Shown piece after piece: positions 20,923 through 29,104 of a DNA stretch of 39,898 bases (within the stretch, counting starts at the first letter, position 1; each line of letters opens with the position of its first letter). The DNA is from a virus. Taxonomy: Duplodnaviria; Heunggongvirae; Uroviricota; Caudoviricetes. The notes below the pieces were generated by a model. The model ran no database searches, was not told the DNA's origin, and saw only the letters and a program-made list of their open reading frames with translations. Location of the stretch: positions 1-39,898 of the IMG/VR virus record IMGVR_UViG_2698536471_000018. The stretch is one strand, 5' to 3'. Both the position numbers and the translations under genes were made by a program.

Positions 20923-22279
20923 CAGGTTCGCCGATGCCGGGCGGCGCTTCATCTTCGGCATTCTCGATGTCCTCGTCGGTAATGGATGCCCCGATGCCGG
21001 TTACGTCAGAATTTTCGCGCAAATCAGTCATAGCAGCTTTCAGTGTCATCAGGCCATCACCCAGCGCTGTACTGATTGCGTTGGTGGTGTTTAACGCCAC
21101 CGTTGAACGATCGACATCAGACATTTGCCAGAGCGGGTTAAACTCAAACGTGAAATCATCCGGGAGCGGCTTGCCAAGTTCCGAACGATGCATGATGTCC
21201 AGTATCCGCCGCACCGGAAGACGTAAACGTCTCTCCTGCAACGAACTGATGCGGTCGTAATAGTTGGCAAGGTCTGCATCACCGGTAGAAAATCCTTTCG
21301 GGGACTGTCCGAACAACCGCACCAGTGGGATACCAACAGCGCCACTAATCTGTTCTGCAAACTGTGAAAGGATGTCATCCAGACCACTGAAGCTGTACTG
21401 ATGAGTTTCAAACTTATCCCGCGAGTCCATGAGCGTCATGCCTTCATTGCTCTGGAACTGTCGAATCAGGTCAATATTCTTCAGCAACGCTTCATACGCA
21501 GGACCACCAAGTGCGATAAGCTCGCGTAGCTTCTCCACGCTGTAGGTGCGCAAATGCGCTTTGTAGACCAGTTGCGCCGCGCCGACAGTAGCGCTGTCGA
21601 ACGCGGTAAGACGATCCCAGATACGCTCTACAACCGACATTCCCCATTCGTTCTCGGTCATCTTCTGCTGAAATGGCAGCGTGACGCCATCAAAGCGAAT
21701 CAGTCGACTGTGATGAATGCGCCAGGCAGGAATTCCCGTTGCTGTGGTCACCACATCGTAAAACTCAGGTTTACCCAGGTCCGGCCCCATATCTTTAATG
21801 CGGCGGGTCAGTACCGGGTCAATCATCCAGCGGTCGAGCGGGAGAATCCCCTTAAACTTGCCTTTACCGATGGTTTCGGGTCGCAGAGGGGTCATTGGTG
21901 CCTGCCCCTCAATCATGATGAAACCCACCGCGCCGCCATAGAGGCGCGACCATTTCAGCACGTCGTTCAGTGCATCCCAGATTTGCAACTCATCCAGTTG
22001 TGATTCGAGAATGCCGCGATCTTTTGCATCAATTTCCGAAGTGATGCGAATGCCTTTGCGGGTCATATCATCCGGGATAGCATCGACCGCTTCGCCGATA
22101 ATCCAGGACGAACGATAGGACCATTCCACCAGCATGCGGTTACGACTGGTAAAATTAGCCCGGTAGGTGGATGCTGAGTGCTGGTTAGGTGTCTGCATCC
22201 CTACGCGGGCAATAAAATTCTCATAACCATCGGCTGTGGCCTGCGCAGTTCGCCGCAGGGCTTGTTTGTTTCGTGCCAT
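20813..22279 (-). CDS. Portal protein
   Basis: 488-aa protein directly downstream of large terminase with acidic C-terminus. Confidence 0.75.
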   Translation of the reverse strand: MARNKQALRRTAQATADGYENFIARVGMQTPNQHSASTYRANFTSRNRMLVEWSYRSSWIIGEAVDAIPDDMTRKGIRITSEIDAKDRGILESQLDELQIWDALNDVLKWSRLYGGAVGFIMIEGQAPMTPLRPETIGKGKFKGILPLDRWMIDPVLTRRIKDMGPDLGKPEFYDVVTTATGIPAWRIHHSRLIRFDGVTLPFQQKMTENEWGMSVVERIWDRLTAFDSATVGAAQLVYKAHLRTYSVEKLRELIALGGPAYEALLKNIDLIRQFQSNEGMTLMDSRDKFETHQYSFSGLDDILSQFAEQISGAVGIPLVRLFGQSPKGFSTGDADLANYYDRISSLQERRLRLPVRRILDIMHRSELGKPLPDDFTFEFNPLWQMSDVDRSTVALNTTNAISTALGDGLMTLKAAMTDLRENSDVTGIGASITDEDIENAEDEAPPGIGEPDDEPQEPSGGNPLSNQPTQDSAGGRRHRKWSLRWFK

Positions 22280-23901
22280 CAGGCCTGTCTCCCTAGCAAC
22301 TCCCAGATGTTCAGGGCTGAATTCATTGGGGCATAGTTGATCATCACCGAGTCGGCAAGGTTTGGCGACCGGGTTCCATCAGGCTGTTTATCAATAACGA
22401 TTTTTCCCACACCATTAATGGAATAGGTCGGCTGCGAAAGCTCGATGATGAGTTTATCTTTGAGTGCCATGCTACTGCTGATTGAGATGATTTCGTCCGG
22501 GTTGTAAGCCATACCTTCAACCACGGCGCGCCAGGTATTCTGAAAAAGTTTACGTAACCGCCACCAGCTCTGGGCTTTGGCGTTAGCGAAGAAGTCCTTG
22601 TTCAGACGTGCGGCTTGCCCGTTGTCCCCGCGAACAGCTTCATCATCCGGATCAAATACCGCGCCACTACCTCGAAACGGTGTGGCGAGTATTGACGGTC
22701 GACGCGCAGCGTTACGCAGTTCGTTGATAGCGCGTGCATCGCCGCGAACTCCAGCGCCCAGTCCGTCCTCGTCAAAGCGAAACTCTTCGAGGTTATCCTG
22801 TTCGCAAAAGCCGAAAATCTTCTCGACGGACTGATAAATGTCGCTGCCCACACCGGACCATTCCCGCACATTTTCCAGGAGGAAGCCATGACGGGTGGAA
22901 AAGGCATTTTTGTCCCTGCCTTCGTCGGCGACATCCATCGCGCCAAGTCGTTTGCCTGTTGGCTGGATACCCAGTTTGATATGCGCATCAACGGCAGCCT
23001 GTACCCATTCGGATGGAATCAGGACGCCTTCCGCTGATGCGCTGTAGTTCAGATCAAGTTCCTGTGCCACCACCACCGGATTATCGATTTTCTCGCATTC
23101 CCTGCGATACCACTCTTCATCCTTGCGAGGATCATCCCGCCAGTGGAATGTGAATACCGGTATCTTCCCGCCATGACGCTTCTGAGCGAACGGGTTAGCC
23201 ATGCCGTTAACTGAACTCAGGTCGATACGGCAACGCGTCGTTTGTGACAACGCCGCATCAATCAGCAGAGGACGCTGAAGGAATGCAGCCTCATCAACCA
23301 GATAAAGCGTGGTACGGTCACCACGACCAATATTATCGCCAGCCTCGCCTTTGATAACGGCACCAGTTTCAGGAAACTCAACACGCATATATGGCGCGTG
23401 CTTCTTCTCACTCCACGAACCGCGAAACTCTACAGGTAGCGTTTCCACGAACTTGCGCGCCTTCCAGAACAATGCTTTCGGGTCACCAGTGCTGTCGACG
23501 TATTCCTCTTTACGGGAGCCAAAACCGATAACCATTTCTTTGTTGAAGAGACAAAGCGAGCATGCCAGTCCGATCGCGGTCCAACTGAGCCCCATTTCAC
23601 GGGATTTTTCGGTAATACCATTCTCCCGATTGCTCCAGCGTTCCATAATCCAGTGGATCCACTCCTCCTGCTTAGGGAAGAGTAAAAACGGAATGGTCAC
23701 CGGCAGGCCATAATCAATATTACGCGGGTCCGTTGTCATGCCCCAGTCGATGATGAACTGAGCCGGATTGGTTCGGTAAAACTGTTTTAGTGCAGGCAAT
23801 ATTTCAGGATTCTGGCGAATGCGCTGTAGGCGTTCCATCCGCCATTCAAAAACCATCTGGTAATCAGGATGTTTAAAATCGAAGGGGAATGGTAACGGCA
23901 T
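22279..23901 (-). CDS. Terminase large subunit
   Basis: 540-aa protein; contains the motif LYLVDEAAF (Walker-B-like DEAA) in an ATPase region; precedes portal. Confidence 0.85.
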
Positions 23902-23905
23902 ACTC

Positions 23906-24457
23906 TTAGCCCATCATTTTTCTATACGCTTCTGCAACCTGCTCCGGCGTTAAGTTGGTAATTTCTGTTCTGACTGGTCCTCCGTCAGCACCAGTCACTT
24001 CATTTTTGACATTGTCTTTAAACGCCTGAACAGAAACATGACGCCCGAGCAACTCAAGGTTTTTAACCTTATCAGGCCATTTGATTTTCTTCAGAAGTGC
24101 GGCGCTATCTGCGGATGCCATCTCCACGACATCCATTCCTGATAGCGTTGTGCGCCATACCTTAGGCCAGTCTTTAATGGGCTTTAGCTCACCGTTTTGC
24201 AGGAGAATGTCGAGCACATCCATCTGGTCGATTTCAATAAGGCGATTAAGTACATATCCTGCATTAATACCAACAAGATCATTGCGTTGCGCTTTCAGTT
24301 CGGCGATTCTTAACTTGATGTCAGGTTTTGACAGGTTTTCGGATGCGGTACGGTTAGCTGTCTTTGCGCTGTACCCCGCCCGAATAGCCGCTTGCGTGGC
24401 GTTTAAATCGATGAGGTACTCGCGACAGAACATCTCTTGTTTGTCGGTGAGTGCCAT
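23906..24457 (-). CDS. Terminase small subunit
   Basis: N-terminus [34 protein letters not shown] is the typical small-terminase HTH signature. Confidence 0.85.
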
Positions 24458-24959: not shown

Positions 24960-25070
24960 GAGCCTCTTTATCTGCTTGTGGGGATATATGGTTAATTATC
25001 CTCTGTAGGGGATACTGCCATCACAATGGGGAGAATCATCGTAATGGCAATAAAAACCGCCCATAGGCAG

Positions 25071-25478
25071 TTAATCTGAAAGACCAAATTTCTTTTTTGC
25101 GTAGGATTTTAGAAGCTCTACACCAACATCTTTCAATACCGATAATGGTTGATCGCTAATTGTTTTTAGCTTCTCAAAAACATCCTTTTGTTGAAGGGTT
25201 TCTGCAAACTCTTGGCCTGATGACGTGAGTCTTACATTGGCTGGCCATTCACGGATTTCATTAAGCCCAATAGTAAGTCCTAATTTCTTAGGATCGCCTA
25301 TTTCTAGAAAATGGTTACTGATATAACCTCTCTCAATCAATTGGTAGTAATGAAAGAGTCCTTTATCGCTGCTTATTTCGTATCCAGCTTTTTTAAGGTC
25401 ATTAGCTGATATCAATGGTCCGCCAGCCTTAATAAAAACCCCTAACATTCCCTTCAAGTATTCCAGATCGGTCTGCAT
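25071..25478 (-). CDS. Hypothetical cargo protein (135 aa)
   Basis: AT-rich ORF between lysis cassette and terminase; no recognisable catalytic motif. Confidence 0.5.
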   Translation of the reverse strand: MQTDLEYLKGMLGVFIKAGGPLISANDLKKAGYEISSDKGLFHYYQLIERGYISNHFLEIGDPKKLGLTIGLNEIREWPANVRLTSSGQEFAETLQQKDVFEKLKTISDQPLSVLKDVGVELLKSYAKKKFGLSD

Positions 25479-25536
25479 AAATTACCTCCATCCTGAGAAA
25501 TAGAGATAATATTACCCTTAAAATTCTTCATTAACA

Positions 25537-25998
25537 CTAATTTGAACACTGCTCTTTGATGTAGTCCTGCAAGTAGCCGACCTGCTTCGTCACTGTGACG
25601 ATTCGCTCTCTGAGGGTGAAATAATCCCGTTCAGCGGAGTCAGTAAGTCCGGGGCTGGAAGCATCGCCCAAGCTGCCGGTGCCGGTCTTTCCGCTCGCTG
25701 GACATCGGGCATTGAAGTGCAGCCCACACTTGCCAGTGCGAACACAACGCTGCAGATCATCAAGCTGCTTTTTCGCATCAGCTAGTTCTCCGGTGTATTT
25801 AGCATCGAGTGCATCAGCATCACGCTGGCGCTGCTGCATGTCAGTAATGGTGGCGTTCGCCTTCTCCAGTTCACTGGCCTTGTTATCGCGCTGCTCTTTG
25901 TAGGCGATTGCGTTATCACGGTAATGATTAACAGCCCATGACAGGCAGACGATGATGCAGATAACCAGAGCGGAGATAATCGCGGTTAACCGACTCAT
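25537..25998 (-). CDS. Rz: i-spanin Rz
   Basis: From [30 protein letters not shown]... near-identical to lambda Rz N-terminus; ORF-track start is an upstream artefact. Confidence 0.9.
25590..25778 (-). CDS. Rz1: o-spanin Rz1 (embedded in Rz, +1 frame)
   Basis: Lipoprotein signal with lipobox SVGC followed by Pro-rich region and [10 protein letters not shown], as in lambda Rz1. Confidence 0.85.
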
Positions 25999-26086
25999 GA
26001 CATCAACACTCCAACGGCCAGAAACCACGGCCACGCATCGTTGCCATTGAATGCGAGCAACGCTGCCATGAAAAAGCAAATCATGC

Positions 26087-26590
26087 TCATTGTTGCCCCC
26101 ACAAACAGACTTCACGCTCAATCTCACGACGAGTCATCAGACCTTTCCATTGCTTACCGCCAGCGTATGTCCAGCGACGTAGCTGATCACATGCGCCTTT
26201 GATATCGCCCTGGTTGATTTTGCGCAGAAGCGTCGATGTTCTGAAATTGCCAGCACCCACGTTGTAAACGAATGAGTAAAGAGCGCCGCGCGTTGTTTCC
26301 GGTATATCGACTTTGATGTACGGGTTAATTTGTCTGGCTACCGTGGCAAGGTCTTTATTCAGGAGGGCTTTGCATTCTGCTTCGGTATACGTTTTACCGG
26401 GAATGATGTCTTTTCCTGTATGCCCGTGACATACAGTCCATACGCCAACGATATCTTTGTATGGTATGTAGCTGACACCTTCCAGACCATCGTTACCACC
26501 TGGACCAGTGATTAACACTGATGCTATAGCAATAGCCCCGCCACTTATCGCCGCTATTACGCTATTTCGTAGTGCCGGTGACATTGCCAT
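26087..26590 (-). CDS. R: SAR endolysin (phage 21 R-type lysozyme)
   Basis: N-terminal Gly/Ala-rich signal-anchor-release helix ([26 protein letters not shown]) then lysozyme domain. Confidence 0.9.
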
Positions 26591-26765
26591 TCAATCTGTC
26601 CTCGCGCTCTTTGCGCTTGTAGTACCAGTTGATGCCAAATGTGCCGACAGTACAAAGAATACCAATGATGACAGCCCAGTCATTCAGGGAGAGAATGCCA
26701 CCCATCGCAGTCAGTCCTCCGAAGCTGTAACTGAACCATTCTCTGATTTTGTCCATACGGTACAT
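26562..26765 (-). CDS. S: Class II holin / pinholin with dual start (MYRM...)
   Basis: 67 aa, two TM segments, charged C-terminus, Met1/Met4 dual-start; hairpin CCCCT-N6-AGGGG immediately upstream, resembling the lambda sdi structure. Confidence 0.75.
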
Positions 26766-27008
26766 GCTCTACCCCTTCATTGAGGGGATTTGCTCTATTT
26801 AATTAGGAATAAGGTCGATTACTGATAGAACAAATCCAGGCTACTGTGTTTAGTAATCAGATTTGTTCGTGACCGATATGCACGGGCAAAACGGCATGAG
26901 GTTGTTAGCGCAACCTCTTGCCACCCGCTTTCACGAGGTCATGTGTAGAAGGCCGCAGCGTAACTATCACTGATGAATTCAGGATAGCCAGTGGCTACGG
27001 CTCAGTTA

Positions 27009-27084
27009 TGGTGCTGGTTAACGGACTTGAACCGCTACCCATTCGCTTACAAGGCGACTGCTCTACCATTGGAGCTAAACCAGC
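27009..27084 (-). tRNA. tRNA-Thr (anticodon UGU)
   Basis: Hand-folded cloverleaf: 7-bp acceptor stem GCTGGTT/AACCAGC, anticodon loop CTTGTAA, T-loop TTCAAGT, 3' ACCA. Confidence 0.75.
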
Positions 27085-27089
27085 ATATT

Positions 27090-27164
27090 TGGCGGGACAG
27101 CGTGGACTCGAACCACGATAAGAAGGTTAACAGCCTTCCGTAATGACCTTTATACGACTGACCC
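27090..27164 (-). tRNA. tRNA-Asn (anticodon GUU)
   Basis: Anticodon stem GAAGG/CCTTC with loop CTGTTAA, T-arm CGTGG-TTCGAGT-CCACG, 3' GCCA; one acceptor-stem mismatch and irregular D-arm. Confidence 0.6.
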
Positions 27165-27218
27165 AAATAAAAAAAGCCACCGTTGCAACTTAAGAGTCAC
27201 TAACGGCAGCTTACATCT

Positions 27219-27731
27219 TTAAACGGTATGATATTTCATTCTGGCTGCCTCAAAAGCCGCAGCGGCAAGTTCTGCTGTGTCATGGTATCCAAGGTTAATA
27301 CACTTTCCAGACGCATTAATTCTTGCTCTCCATTTCCCGTACTTAGCATCCCAAGACACGCCACGGTACCCAGATTTATTATTCTTCTGAATTTTCCTGT
27401 TCTGCATATTTTCGGAATGAGTGACAAGACGAAGATTTGATATCCGGTTATCTGTTCTTACCCTGTTGATGTGATCAATAATGCCATCGGGCATGGTGCC
27501 ATAAACAATCAACCATGCCAGTCTGTGAGCAGGGTATGCTTTACCATTAAGCATAATCATTAAATACCCACCAGAACTTATTGATGAGCATTTCTTGAAA
27601 GCAAAACGAGAGTTCCATGTCAAAGTAGTCCTCTCTCTCCCCCGCCTCCATTTCCAGTGAAAGTCGCCTGATGATGGATTGTAATCAACAACAGAAAGCA
27701 CCATTTCTGGCGTTAATTTTATTTCTTTCAT
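27219..27731 (-). CDS. HNH homing endonuclease with AP2 DNA-binding domain
   Basis: HNH motif (HRLAWLIVYG...IDHINRVRTDNRISNLRLVTHSENMQN) followed by AP2-type motif (SGYRGVSWDAKYGKWRARI...LGYHDTAELAAAAFEAA). Confidence 0.85.
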   Translation of the reverse strand: MKEIKLTPEMVLSVVDYNPSSGDFHWKWRRGRERTTLTWNSRFAFKKCSSISSGGYLMIMLNGKAYPAHRLAWLIVYGTMPDGIIDHINRVRTDNRISNLRLVTHSENMQNRKIQKNNKSGYRGVSWDAKYGKWRARINASGKCINLGYHDTAELAAAAFEAARMKYHTV

Positions 27732-27850
27732 CGCTTTACCTTAGGGATAGAGCCTGTTCGCGTAGATATGACAGCCAAGAGCGGAGCGATGTTTCCACCA
27801 CCATATCTCAGGCCCATATCACTAAGACTCTTGTTTTGATTGCACGCGAA

Positions 27851-27877
27851 TGCAAAAAAGCCCACAGGAGGTGGGCT
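27851..27877 (-). terminator. Late terminator tR' downstream of Q/PR'
   Basis: Minus-strand hairpin GCCCAC-ctcct-GTGGGC followed by TTTTTTG, about 75 nt downstream of Q stop. Confidence 0.7.
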
Positions 27878-27916
27878 TGTGATGGTTGCTGAATGCAAAA
27901 GCAGCAGCATATGCGA

Positions 27917-27947
27917 ATAGTGTTGCTCATTTGCTCAATGATGTCAA
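27917..27947 (-). promoter_or_regulatory. Candidate late promoter PR' (-35 TTGACA at 27942-27947)
   Basis: Consensus -35 hexamer just downstream of Q; -10 element not confidently assigned. Confidence 0.4.
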
Positions 27948-27953
27948 CACGTT

Positions 27954-28442
27954 CTATGCTACATGTTTAATTTTCTCTACACGTTTCCGGTTTTTAAACG
28001 CACTATCCAGAACCGGGTAAATCATAAACAACGAGGCATTAAGGATTTCGTCAACTTCCCGTCGACAGGTTGCGAGCGATGGTTTTTGAATGCGCCCGCC
28101 GCCCCGGCATAACATCTTGCGAGGTCTTGCGACGCGATGATAGTAAGATGCAATGGCGTGCCTGGAAGAACCATGAGCGTAGTAGCTGAGGAGGATGCCA
28201 AAGGCTTTCTTGTCAATGTACATGACGGAATCGACGACCTGAGAAATCAACATTCCATCATCATCATTGCACATTGGCCTTGTCATAACTCTCCCCGGCT
28301 CTACGCTCTCCATGAACTTCGCTATTACGCTGCTCATGCGCTTTTCCAGACGACCTGAATAAACCCATGCGCCCCACAGTTCAAGCCAGCCATTCAGCCA
28401 CTCGTGCTGCTCTTTGGTGAGGTTTAGTTCTCTTATGCCCAC
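27954..28442 (-). CDS. Q: Late antiterminator Q
   Basis: 162-aa protein in Q position upstream of PR'-tR' and lysis genes; Cys/His-containing C-terminal half. Confidence 0.7.
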
Positions 28443-29104
28443 GCGCCTTCTCCCTGTACCTGAATCAATGTGAGGTTTCCGCAGAACACTGCGCCGGTAT
28501 CGATATACATCTGGTTGGCAAACTTGAGTGGTTTCACTGCTGGCGTATGACCAAAGATGAACGTGTCCGCTCCTTTGATTTCTTTCACGATCCCGTCTTG
28601 TGAGTTGCTGATTCGTTCGCGGTTCCAGATTACCTGCTGATGATCAACTGGCTTTCCAAATTCGTATTCGTCACAAGGATAATCGGCGTGGCAGATGACA
28701 TATTTTTTACCTTCGCTCACCAGTTCGATGATTAACGGAAGTTCATCTGCTTTATGGGCAAGAGCTTTAGCCAGAATTTCTTTGTCGTAATCGAGATTAA
28801 AGAACCAGCCACCGCCATTAAGCAGCCAGTGATTGACGTTTCCACGCTCTGATAAGCCATCAATCATCATTTGCTCATGGTTTCCACGTACAGCTCGGAA
28901 CCAGGGGAATGTGATTAATTCCAGACATTCGACGTTCTCTGTACCGCGATCGACCAAATCGCCAACCGAGATAAGCAGGTCTTTTTTGGTGTCGAATCCT
29001 ATCGTCTCCAGTTTTTTCATCAGGTTCGTGTAGCATCCGTGCAGATCGCCAACTACCCAAATATTTCGGTATTTGCTGCCATCAATTTTTTCGTAATAGC
29101 GCAT
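28433..29104 (-). CDS. Ser/Thr protein phosphatase (lambda ORF221 homologue)
   Basis: From [29 protein letters not shown]...; metallophosphatase motifs GDLHG, GDLVDRG, GNHE. Confidence 0.9.

Follow-up and report, generated by a model that had tools for sequence, protein, structure and literature searches.

Why should a temperate lambdoid phage carry two transfer RNA (tRNA) genes and an HNH-AP2 endonuclease gene between its late antiterminator gene Q and its lysis genes? The question is raised by IMG/VR virus record IMGVR_UViG_2698536471_000018 (Caudoviricetes), analysed here over its full 39,898 nucleotides (nt; the 39.9-kb window, to which all coordinates refer), and the region is best explained as the late-operon leader of a phage-21-type lambdoid Escherichia coli prophage. 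Along the minus strand, on which all listed features lie, the order is Q, the late promoter pR′ with its Q21-binding element, the transcription start, a 698-bp cassette holding the endonuclease gene, the ancestral terminator tR′, tRNA-Asn(GUU), tRNA-Thr(UGU), a lambda-type leader, holin, endolysin, and spanin. Taken as a whole, the locus is probably a nuclease-evading tRNA pair joined, within a phage-21-type late leader, by a selfish HNH-AP2 cassette of the homing type. The two tRNA genes are as follows.

27090..27164, minus strand: tRNA-Asn(GUU), CCA encoded, beginning right after the U-run of tR′ (ARAGORN; Rfam RF00005, 55.3 bits)
27009..27084, minus strand: tRNA-Thr(UGU), CCA encoded, with the sequence of the phage 21 'tRNAThr21' (ARAGORN; Rfam RF00005, 61.5 bits)

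ARAGORN called exactly two tRNAs in the 39.9-kb window, with the anticodons tgt and gtt, and a permissive Rfam scan of 25000-29500 returned the same two alone, both above the RF00005 gathering score of 29. Identity to the E. coli host genes is 70% for tRNA-Thr (compared with thrU) and 58% for tRNA-Asn (compared with asnT), and tRNA-Asn contains the mismatches U4.U69 and U13.U22. In E. coli, tRNA-Asn is recognized by its synthetase through G34-U35-U36 and G73, and tRNA-Thr through G1-C72, C2-G71, and G35-U36. Read from the sequence, the corresponding elements are present in the window (G73 and GUU for Asn; G1-C72, C2-G71, and UGU for Thr), with an encoded 3′ CCA in both. An initial annotation, made from the sequence alone, had proposed UGU and GUU tRNAs, as these searches bear out; the pair is not new cargo, both genes being 100% identical to the long-annotated tRNAs of phage 21, Sf6, and BTP1 (PMC3636060). 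The tandem Asn(GUU)-Thr(UGU) genes lie immediately after tR′ and downstream of a Q21-type Q, the arrangement that defines the phage 21/Sf6-type module, and this module also occurs in SfI, ST64T, PS3, and BTP1. The Q/tRNA-Asn/tRNA-Thr layout is annotated in phage 21, Sf6, SfI, BTP1, SPN9CC, and many other phages, as well as in thousands of E. coli prophages (megablast), and the SfI genome paper lists the tandem pair for SfI, Sf6, ST64T, PS3, and phage 21 (PMC3636060). The pair is thus an already known, annotated and published member of the phage 21/Sf6 module, and among 120 sampled contigs with a phage-21-type tR′ locus, about half carry it.

Several variants of the pair were seen among these loci. 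Many carry an exact tRNA-Asn without an exact tRNA-Thr. The pair is also an exchangeable block: lambda-type alleles (HK629 and the sampled loci L005, L008, and L012) hold ~170-210 nt of unrelated sequence (GCACAACAGGTAAGAGC...) in its place, the replacement falling exactly between the tR′ U-run and AACTGAGCCGTAGCC, and a weak similarity (CAGCAC...AACTGAGCC) at the 3′ boundary of the replaced block hints at a crossover within the 3′ end of tRNA-Thr. In E. coli UTME-3 (L007, 3331-3484), in a context resembling Shiga toxin (Stx) phages, the second tRNA is a hybrid with the 5′ half of phage 21 tRNA-Thr and a 3′ half like that of host thrU. This hybrid has a 3-bp anticodon stem and is annotated as tRNA-Thr in RefSeq, with no call from ARAGORN; a tRNA-Gly(UCC) and a TerB-family gene come after it.

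What the pair does is suggested by recent work on tRNA-cutting defense nucleases. The Old protein of phage P2 is lethal because it cleaves host tRNA-Thr(UGU) in the anticodon stem, at paired CNG motifs (nt 28-30 and 40-42), and host tRNA-Asn(GUU) is likewise cut (Govande et al., 2025; PMC12445682). The phage 21 tRNA-Thr(UGU) protects cells from P2 Old and withstands cleavage in vitro, a resistance that the authors ascribe to a shorter anticodon stem and to changes near both cut sites, or altered base pairs (PMC12445682). AriB, the nuclease of PARIS, cuts tRNA-Lys(UUU) as well as the tRNAs Thr(UGU) and Asn(GUU) between nt 40 and 41 at the motif U36-A-A-U-C, and the T5 versions of tRNA-Lys/Thr/Asn restore growth against it (PMC12409363). 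The positions concerned compare as follows in host and phage tRNAs.

Host thrU: nt 28-30/40-42, CUG/CAG; nt 36-41, UAAUCA
Phage tRNA-Thr: nt 28-30/40-42, UCG/CGA; nt 36-41, UAAGCG; 27G.43A mismatch
Host asnT: nt 28-30/40-42, CGG/CCG; nt 36-41, UAAUCC
Phage tRNA-Asn: nt 28-30/40-42, AAG/CUU; nt 36-41, UAACCU

The 27G.43A mismatch and the changed bases of the window tRNA-Thr correspond precisely to the features to which the resistance of the phage 21 tRNA was ascribed. Both phage tRNAs lack the anticodon-stem motifs cut by P2 Old and AriB, and U39 and nt 41 are replaced in both, such that each combines the anticodon of a targeted host tRNA with altered recognition elements, the sequence pattern of a nuclease-resistant phage tRNA. 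The T5 tRNAs for Thr, Asn, and Lys are also without U39; the C28:G42 pair is absent from T5 Thr and Lys, and T5 Asn retains C28 and has lost G42. The window tRNA-Asn and tRNA-Thr therefore resemble the T5 rescue tRNAs (PMC12409363) in having lost U39 and the C28:G42 pair. Since the window tRNA-Thr is the very molecule tested against P2 Old (PMC12445682), its counter-defense function has in effect already been demonstrated by a published experiment. The part played by tRNA-Asn is predicted from its anticodon stem, and would be to replace host tRNA-Asn(GUU) in the same way. Together, the phage tRNAs would stand in for host tRNAs destroyed by the Toprim (OLD-family) tRNA nucleases of rival elements, P2 Old and PARIS AriB among them, and as a secondary effect would add capacity for ACA, a codon that the phage often uses. 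The literature searched contained no description of tRNA-Asn as completing an anti-Toprim-nuclease pair, and nuclease evasion offers a concrete, testable reason for a gene left unexplained in earlier genome papers. It also connects a feature common in prophages with the results reported for P2 Old and PARIS in 2025.

An alternative is that the tRNAs are codon supplements only, with no anti-nuclease role, serving codons that are more frequent in the phage, with its higher AT content, than in the host (ACA, and Asn codons generally). Codon usage was compared in three gene sets.

21 late open reading frames (ORFs): ACA 13.9 per 1000 codons; ACA 21.9% of Thr; AAC 50.5% of Asn
8 early/nin ORFs: ACA 10.0 per 1000; ACA 23.5% of Thr; AAC 60.2% of Asn
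39 E. coli K-12 genes: ACA 5.5 per 1000; ACA 10.5% of Thr; AAC 64.7% of Asn

The ~2.5-fold enrichment of ACA in the late ORFs relative to the K-12 genes (p = 3e-7) agrees with this view, as do the higher total Asn content (49.9 vs. 35.4 per 1000), the fact that ACA is read by host thrU only, and a similar ACA bias reported for SfI (PMC3636060). However, of the two codons that the initial annotation proposed to compare between late genes and host, only ACA is enriched, and the enrichment is shared by the early genes, which are made ahead of the tRNAs and are just as ACA-rich, while AAC is under-used in the phage (50% vs. 65% of Asn); codon supply can for these reasons account for at most part of the picture. 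The SfI authors found no codon bias that would account for tRNA-Asn (PMC3636060). Moreover, simple supplementation gives no reason for the phage tRNAs to differ by 30-42% from those of the host, with the differences concentrated in nuclease recognition elements, and host tRNAs-Thr, including ThrU, give little or no protection from Old, unlike the phage tRNAs (PMC12445682). As a full explanation, codon supply is unlikely, and nuclease evasion remains the preferred function of the pair.

The endonuclease gene has a different history, which becomes apparent when the region between pR′ and the tRNAs is compared with that of relatives. The features involved are listed below.

27954..28442, minus strand: late antiterminator Q, phage-21-type, 162 amino acids (aa) (Pfam Phage_antitermQ, 3.2e-24)
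27919..27947, minus strand: late promoter pR′, with -35 TTGACA at 27947-27942 and the Q-binding element ATTGAGCAAATGAGCA at 27939-27924
27212..27909, minus strand: inserted cassette, 698 bp, comprising a leader that includes a terminator of its own, then the HNH-AP2 gene and a final 7 nt (alignments against empty and occupied sites)
27852..27878, minus strand: predicted intrinsic terminator T1 of the cassette, AAGCCCAC-CTCCT-GTGGGCTT and then TTTTTT (terminator scan; fold)
27219..27731, minus strand: free-standing gene for an HNH_3 + AP2 endonuclease of 170 aa; the Shine-Dalgarno sequence TAAGGT lies 7 nt upstream (Pfam, PHROG)
27165..27212, minus strand: ancestral phage 21 tR′ terminator (AAGCUGCCGUUAG...CAACGGUGGCUUUUUUUAUUU), now 3′ of the HNH gene and 100% identical to the annotated phage 21 terminator

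In the late region of phage 21 (GenBank OL657228), the tRNAs likewise follow tR′ directly, and the window matches it at 100% in the promoter and Q-binding element, in tR′, and in both tRNAs, and at 98% in Q (98.2% at the nucleotide level, as against only 84-87% to Q of the Sf6/HK629 type). The positions of the -35, Q-binding element, -10, transcription start, and sigma-dependent pause element were carried over from the annotation of the phage 21 record; 27911-27953 matches phage 21 at 100%, and pR′ transcription presumably starts at A27912. The folded tR′ has a free energy of -20.2 kcal/mol (z -4.15). The window differs from phage 21 in having the 698-bp HNH cassette between +3 and tR′, and a lambda-type leader with an HP1-family holin gene where phage 21 has the S21 leader and gene.

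Alignment of the junctions with empty sites (phage 21, Sf6, BTP1) and occupied sites (HK629, VR50, UTME-3) defines the insertion. Identity to phage 21 runs through pR′ and the Q-binding element to ...TTCGCATA, 3 nt past A27912 and inside the sigma-dependent pause element; the block TGCTGCTGC...AAAGATGTA is missing from phage 21, Sf6, and BTP1, and phage 21 sequence then resumes at AGCTGCCGTTAG..., which takes in all of tR′ and leads on to the tRNAs. At each junction, the placement of a TA dinucleotide is ambiguous. The cassette opens with TGCT, which converts the pause hexamer TAAGCT to TATGCT, and the -10-like element is retained. Behind these bases lie T1, a 120-nt spacer, the Shine-Dalgarno sequence TAAGGT, and the HNH ORF, the stop codon of which is 7 nt from the junction. 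T1 has the features expected of an intrinsic terminator, namely an 8-bp stem (27878-27858) with five G-C pairs and then T6, and the exact T1 sequence is present in 40 of the 42 cassette copies examined. Because the cassette brings replacements for both the pause hexamer and the terminator, the Q21 regulatory element is apparently unbroken, although a selfish endonuclease cassette sits inside the well-studied Q21 loading and pause region. The literature searched contained no account of a cassette that maps to the pR′ pause region, brings a terminator, and rebuilds the hexamer, and searches on the HK629 HNH protein and on HNH homing endonucleases in lambdoid late leaders returned nothing relevant.

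The endonuclease is thus a true insertion, as the initial annotation had suspected, absent from the same site in phage 21, Sf6, BTP1, and ~92-95% of relatives. Its location was given there as between tR′ and the lysis genes. It does lie between Q and the lysis genes, but upstream of the ancestral tR′ (27212-27165) and 3 nt after the pR′ start, and the terminator that had been taken for tR′ is probably T1 of the cassette (27878-27852). The initial annotation may be said to have observed the locus correctly and interpreted it partly correctly, the greater part being known biology.

This arrangement predicts a simple pattern of expression. Without Q, the pR′ transcript would end at T1 after ~59 nt. 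Constitutive transcription from pR′ in a lysogen should go no further than this, and the HNH gene and tRNAs would for that reason be silent. Once Q is present, polymerase would pass both T1 and tR′, and the HNH protein would be the earliest of the late products, ahead of the two tRNAs and the lysis genes. A scan of the stretch from T1 to the HNH start, strict enough to miss pR′ itself, yielded no consensus-like promoter. In the HK629 record, a 'putative late promoter pR′' is annotated between T1 and the HNH gene (2190-2195); this candidate was rejected, since the homolog of the phage 21/Sf6 pR′ lies upstream of T1, and the annotation looks mistaken.

Two further features of the cassette leader were noted. 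The 10-nt sequence TTTTGCATTC occurs twice on the minus strand (27848-27857 and 27891-27900), flanking T1 at a distance of 43 nt. A 60-aa ORF (27728-27910, minus strand) starts with an AUG at +3 of the predicted pR′ transcript, spans T1, and has an ATGA overlap with the HNH start; if translated, it would have almost no leader and would be translationally coupled to the HNH gene. The ORF is probably spurious and gave no match in Pfam-like, NCBIfam, or PADLOC comparisons. The cassette leader is too invariant to reveal coding constraint on it.

The protein itself is of a kind associated with mobility. As the initial annotation had proposed from the letters, it is an HNH-AP2 endonuclease, with Pfam matches to HNH_3 (7e-19, residues 66-110) and AP2 (1.6e-8, residues 120-167) and a match to PHROG 99, 'HNH endonuclease' (8e-74); PADLOC gave only its generic 'homing endonuclease' model (1.2e-6), and NCBIfam no match. 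It is 39% identical to T5 hegE/F-TflV, which is likewise 170 aa long (E 1e-33), and its residues D86-H87, N99, and N108 align with D74-H75, N87, and N96 of I-HmuI (PDB 1U3E). An HNH nuclease domain with apparently intact catalytic residues and a separate DNA-binding module is the build of a homing endonuclease. The ORF was intact in 42/42 copies, with 13 synonymous and 11 non-synonymous variants (ratio of non-synonymous to synonymous polymorphism, pN/pS, 0.23). Relatives at <60% identity occur in thousands of virulent phages; a single genome often has several, and homing endonuclease is a frequent annotation. The 14 pattern matches in GTDB species-representative genomes included none that was confirmed as a close copy. 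The Pfam, PHROG, I-HmuI, and T5 similarities settle the fold family and support a selfish, free-standing, homing-type endonuclease of the T5 F-Tfl kind, and the cassette adds a member to the free-standing HNH homing endonucleases, one already present in HK629 and RefSeq prophages. Like the window gene, which adjoins tRNAs, the T5 gene sits among tRNA genes and other HNH genes. However, the T5 and I-HmuI genes lie between genes or in an intron, whereas the window gene, carried by a temperate lambdoid phage, interrupts a regulatory leader and brings along a terminator.

HNH proteins of the HK97 gp74 kind exist in cos phages, and the window protein might on that precedent be a terminase-associated packaging nuclease. 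This can scarcely be credited: the gene lies between Q and the holin and lysis genes, ~3 kb away from the terminase genes (22279-24457), its HNH_3+AP2 architecture is typical of homing enzymes, and it is missing from ~92-95% of otherwise similar phages. A gene that is neither terminase-adjacent nor universally present does not fit the gp74 type, which was rejected on position and dispensability, leaving the homing-type endonuclease as the favored identity.

The distribution of the cassette is that of a mobile or at least a transferable element. It was present in 39 of the 738 E. coli complete genomes with a tR′ segment and in 10 of 120 sampled IMG/VR contigs with tR′, i.e., a site occupancy of ~5-8%. 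All copies examined (42/42) share one site and the same junctions, and presence or absence is thus polymorphic among close relatives at one fixed site with clean junctions. HK629 (JQ182735) carries the same cassette at the same site as HK629_061, 'HNH endonuclease' (98.3% nucleotide identity over 749 bp), as does the E. coli UTME-3 prophage (99.9%), and the site is occupied by the same cassette in the VR50 prophage. In HK629, the Q and promoter are of the Sf6 type, lambda-type sequence takes the place of the tRNAs, and the holin is lambda S, unlike in the window. More generally, the left flank is a phage-21-type promoter (the window, L013, and UTME-3) or, in most copies, one of the Sf6 type, and the right flanks belong to at least three module types (the exact tRNA pair; tRNA-Asn with a variant or no exact tRNA-Thr; lambda-type without tRNAs), with different holins downstream. 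The leader, T1 included, is 99-100% identical in the five relatives compared, and across hosts whose Q is only 86-87% identical to the window Q, leader identity is 99-100% and ORF identity 97-100%. Grouping at 99% identity sorts the Q 3′ ends that accompany the cassette into more than 20 clusters, at least eight of which also include empty alleles. Occupied Sf6-type sites carry ATTCACATA, which was never seen in ~60 empty Sf6-type sites and matches the transcript start of the phage-21-type (ATTCGCATA, or ATTCACATA in one empty Q21-type site); the tract looks like a co-conversion mark from a phage-21-type donor. The cassette would spread into the empty pR′/tR′ junction of relatives by recombination, probably stimulated by a nick or break made by the enzyme, and we infer endonuclease-driven homing from this pattern.

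Decay of the cassette was also observed. Five PhiR12 phages (PhiR12_1 = L006, 2501-2750) retain, at 100% identity, the T1-bearing leader and 66 nt from the start of the ORF, after which the sequence is unrelated and Stx-phage-like. In these phages, T1 of the decayed cassette is now the sole promoter-proximal late terminator.

A serious rival explanation for the spread is mosaic recombination. Here, the cassette would be a passive module, inserted once and shuffled by homologous recombination at its Q/pR′ and tR′ flanks, and the enzyme would have another role, e.g., attacking competitor DNA, or simply be tolerated. Lambdoid phages are highly mosaic, and neighboring segments of the window each have a different closest relative; every copy occupies a single site with conserved flanks, occupancy is as low as 5-8%, the leader and 66-nt ORF remnant of PhiR12 speak of decay, and no close copy was found in GTDB species-representative genomes. 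However, the pN/pS of 0.23 and the intact state of 42/42 ORFs, with catalytic residues, point to an active protein, and passive shuffling accommodates less readily a near-identical cassette on Q backgrounds 13-14% apart and in more than 20 Q haplotype clusters, a 3′ boundary only 7 nt past the stop codon, and membership of a protein family annotated as homing endonucleases, often with several per phage genome. We regard passive shuffling as somewhat unlikely, and homing as the better account of the cassette.

Several points nevertheless weigh against the combined explanation of a nuclease-evading tRNA pair and a homing-type cassette. On the tRNA side, the phage lacks a gene for tRNA-Lys(UUU), the main target of AriB and a requirement for escape from PARIS in published tests (PMC12409363), and Thr and Asn alone should for this reason not defeat the tested PARIS variant. 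The published rescue experiments used plasmid expression, which differs from the Q-dependent late expression of the window phage, and the latter may come too late against a nuclease triggered early. With its U4.U69 and U13.U22 mismatches, tRNA-Asn has a function that is predicted. For the cassette, the HNH cleavage site and homing are likewise predictions for this enzyme, and occupied alleles retain the whole phage-21-type tR′ half of the target, leaving self-immunity unexplained. Ordinary lambdoid mosaic recombination alone could distribute a neutral cassette, and the HNH gene could still have a weak internal promoter. Finally, 23 of the 42 cassette copies are in phages without tRNAs, and the cassette and the tRNAs are therefore independent elements.

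A stronger joint proposal may be put forward tentatively, as one that we think could well be wrong. In this proposal, the tRNA pair is a dedicated anti-Toprim countermeasure of temperate lambdoid phages against P2/P4-type elements, with Asn covering a secondary target, and the HNH cassette is a homing element specialized for the sigma-dependent pause site of pR′. For AriB, tRNA-Asn(GUU) is a secondary but relevant target (PMC12409363). If pause-site homing is true, the rebuilt pause element and the terminator of the cassette would keep the HNH gene silent in lysogens and confine its expression to the time when Q acts and phage genomes open to invasion are plentiful. HK629, an isolated phage, and prophages like the present one offer material on lambdoid homing and on the tolerance of Q21 antitermination to changes after +3. 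Neither the tRNA nor the cassette result overturns current understanding.

Between the tRNAs and the holin gene lies a leader that is shared well beyond the phages discussed so far.

26766..27008, minus strand: lambda-type late-operon leader, from the tRNAs to the holin gene, 95-99% identical to lambda, Sf6, BTP1, HK629, VR50, and 23CRST013
26893..26922, minus strand: conserved imperfect hairpin with a 7-bp stem as its core, then GUUUUG (12-nt arms, 92% complementary)

The leader (~240 nt) is strongly structured (-87.3 kcal/mol, z -6.6), and the hairpin at 26893-26922, which is present in lambda itself, folds at -25.8 kcal/mol (z -3.6). Its core GAGGTTG-N6-CAACCTC (26898-26917) is present as the initial annotation had described it. 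The annotation considered it a possible tRNA remnant or processing signal tied to the tRNA pair, for which one could cite the strong structure of the leader and the place of the hairpin in it, ~90 nt downstream of tRNA-Thr. This is very improbable, as the same hairpin and leader are found in lambda, HK629, VR50, and 23CRST013, all without tRNAs there; neither tRNA-model similarity nor restriction to tRNA-bearing alleles was found, with no tRNA hit in Rfam (at E <= 1 in the window region and E <= 10 in lambda-type loci) or ARAGORN. Nor is there covariation, the single variable stem position being mismatched in 5/7 sequences, and a perfect 7-bp hairpin is in itself nothing unusual in the window, which has 40 with a loop of 3-8 nt (vs. 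~14.5 in shuffles). Its conservation marks the hairpin as part of the lambda-type late leader rather than the remains of a tRNA. It may act there as a secondary terminator, a nuclease site, or an RNA-processing site; a literature search on the tandem late terminators of lambda returned nothing relevant on the leader hairpin.

The lysis genes follow.

26562..26765, minus strand: class II (HP1-family) holin, 67 aa, N-terminus MYRM (Pfam Phage_holin_2_3, 4.4e-21)
26087..26590, minus strand: lysozyme/endolysin (Pfam Phage_lysozyme, 6e-46; 96% identity to the SAR endolysin region of phage 21)
25537-26127, minus strand: Rz

The holin is 100% identical to that of VR50 and 98.5% to that of BTP1, and gave no NCBIfam match. 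The hydrophobic N-terminus of the lysozyme suggests the signal-arrest-release (SAR) type. For a 135-aa ORF (25071-25478, minus strand) lying between Rz and the terminase genes, Pfam gave no match, and the structural genes further along are similar to those of E. coli phages named myoviruses (vB_EcoM-611R5) and of Salmonella phage SEN34. In the holin MYRM (26754-26800 region), two Met codons flank Tyr-Arg and resemble the dual-start holin/antiholin motifs of lambda S and S21. The stem-loop AUCCCCUCAAUGAAGGGGU precedes the HP1-family holin gene, and lambda has a similar stem-loop, CCCCUUAUUGGGGG, right upstream of S; the late leader is common to class I and class II holin genes.

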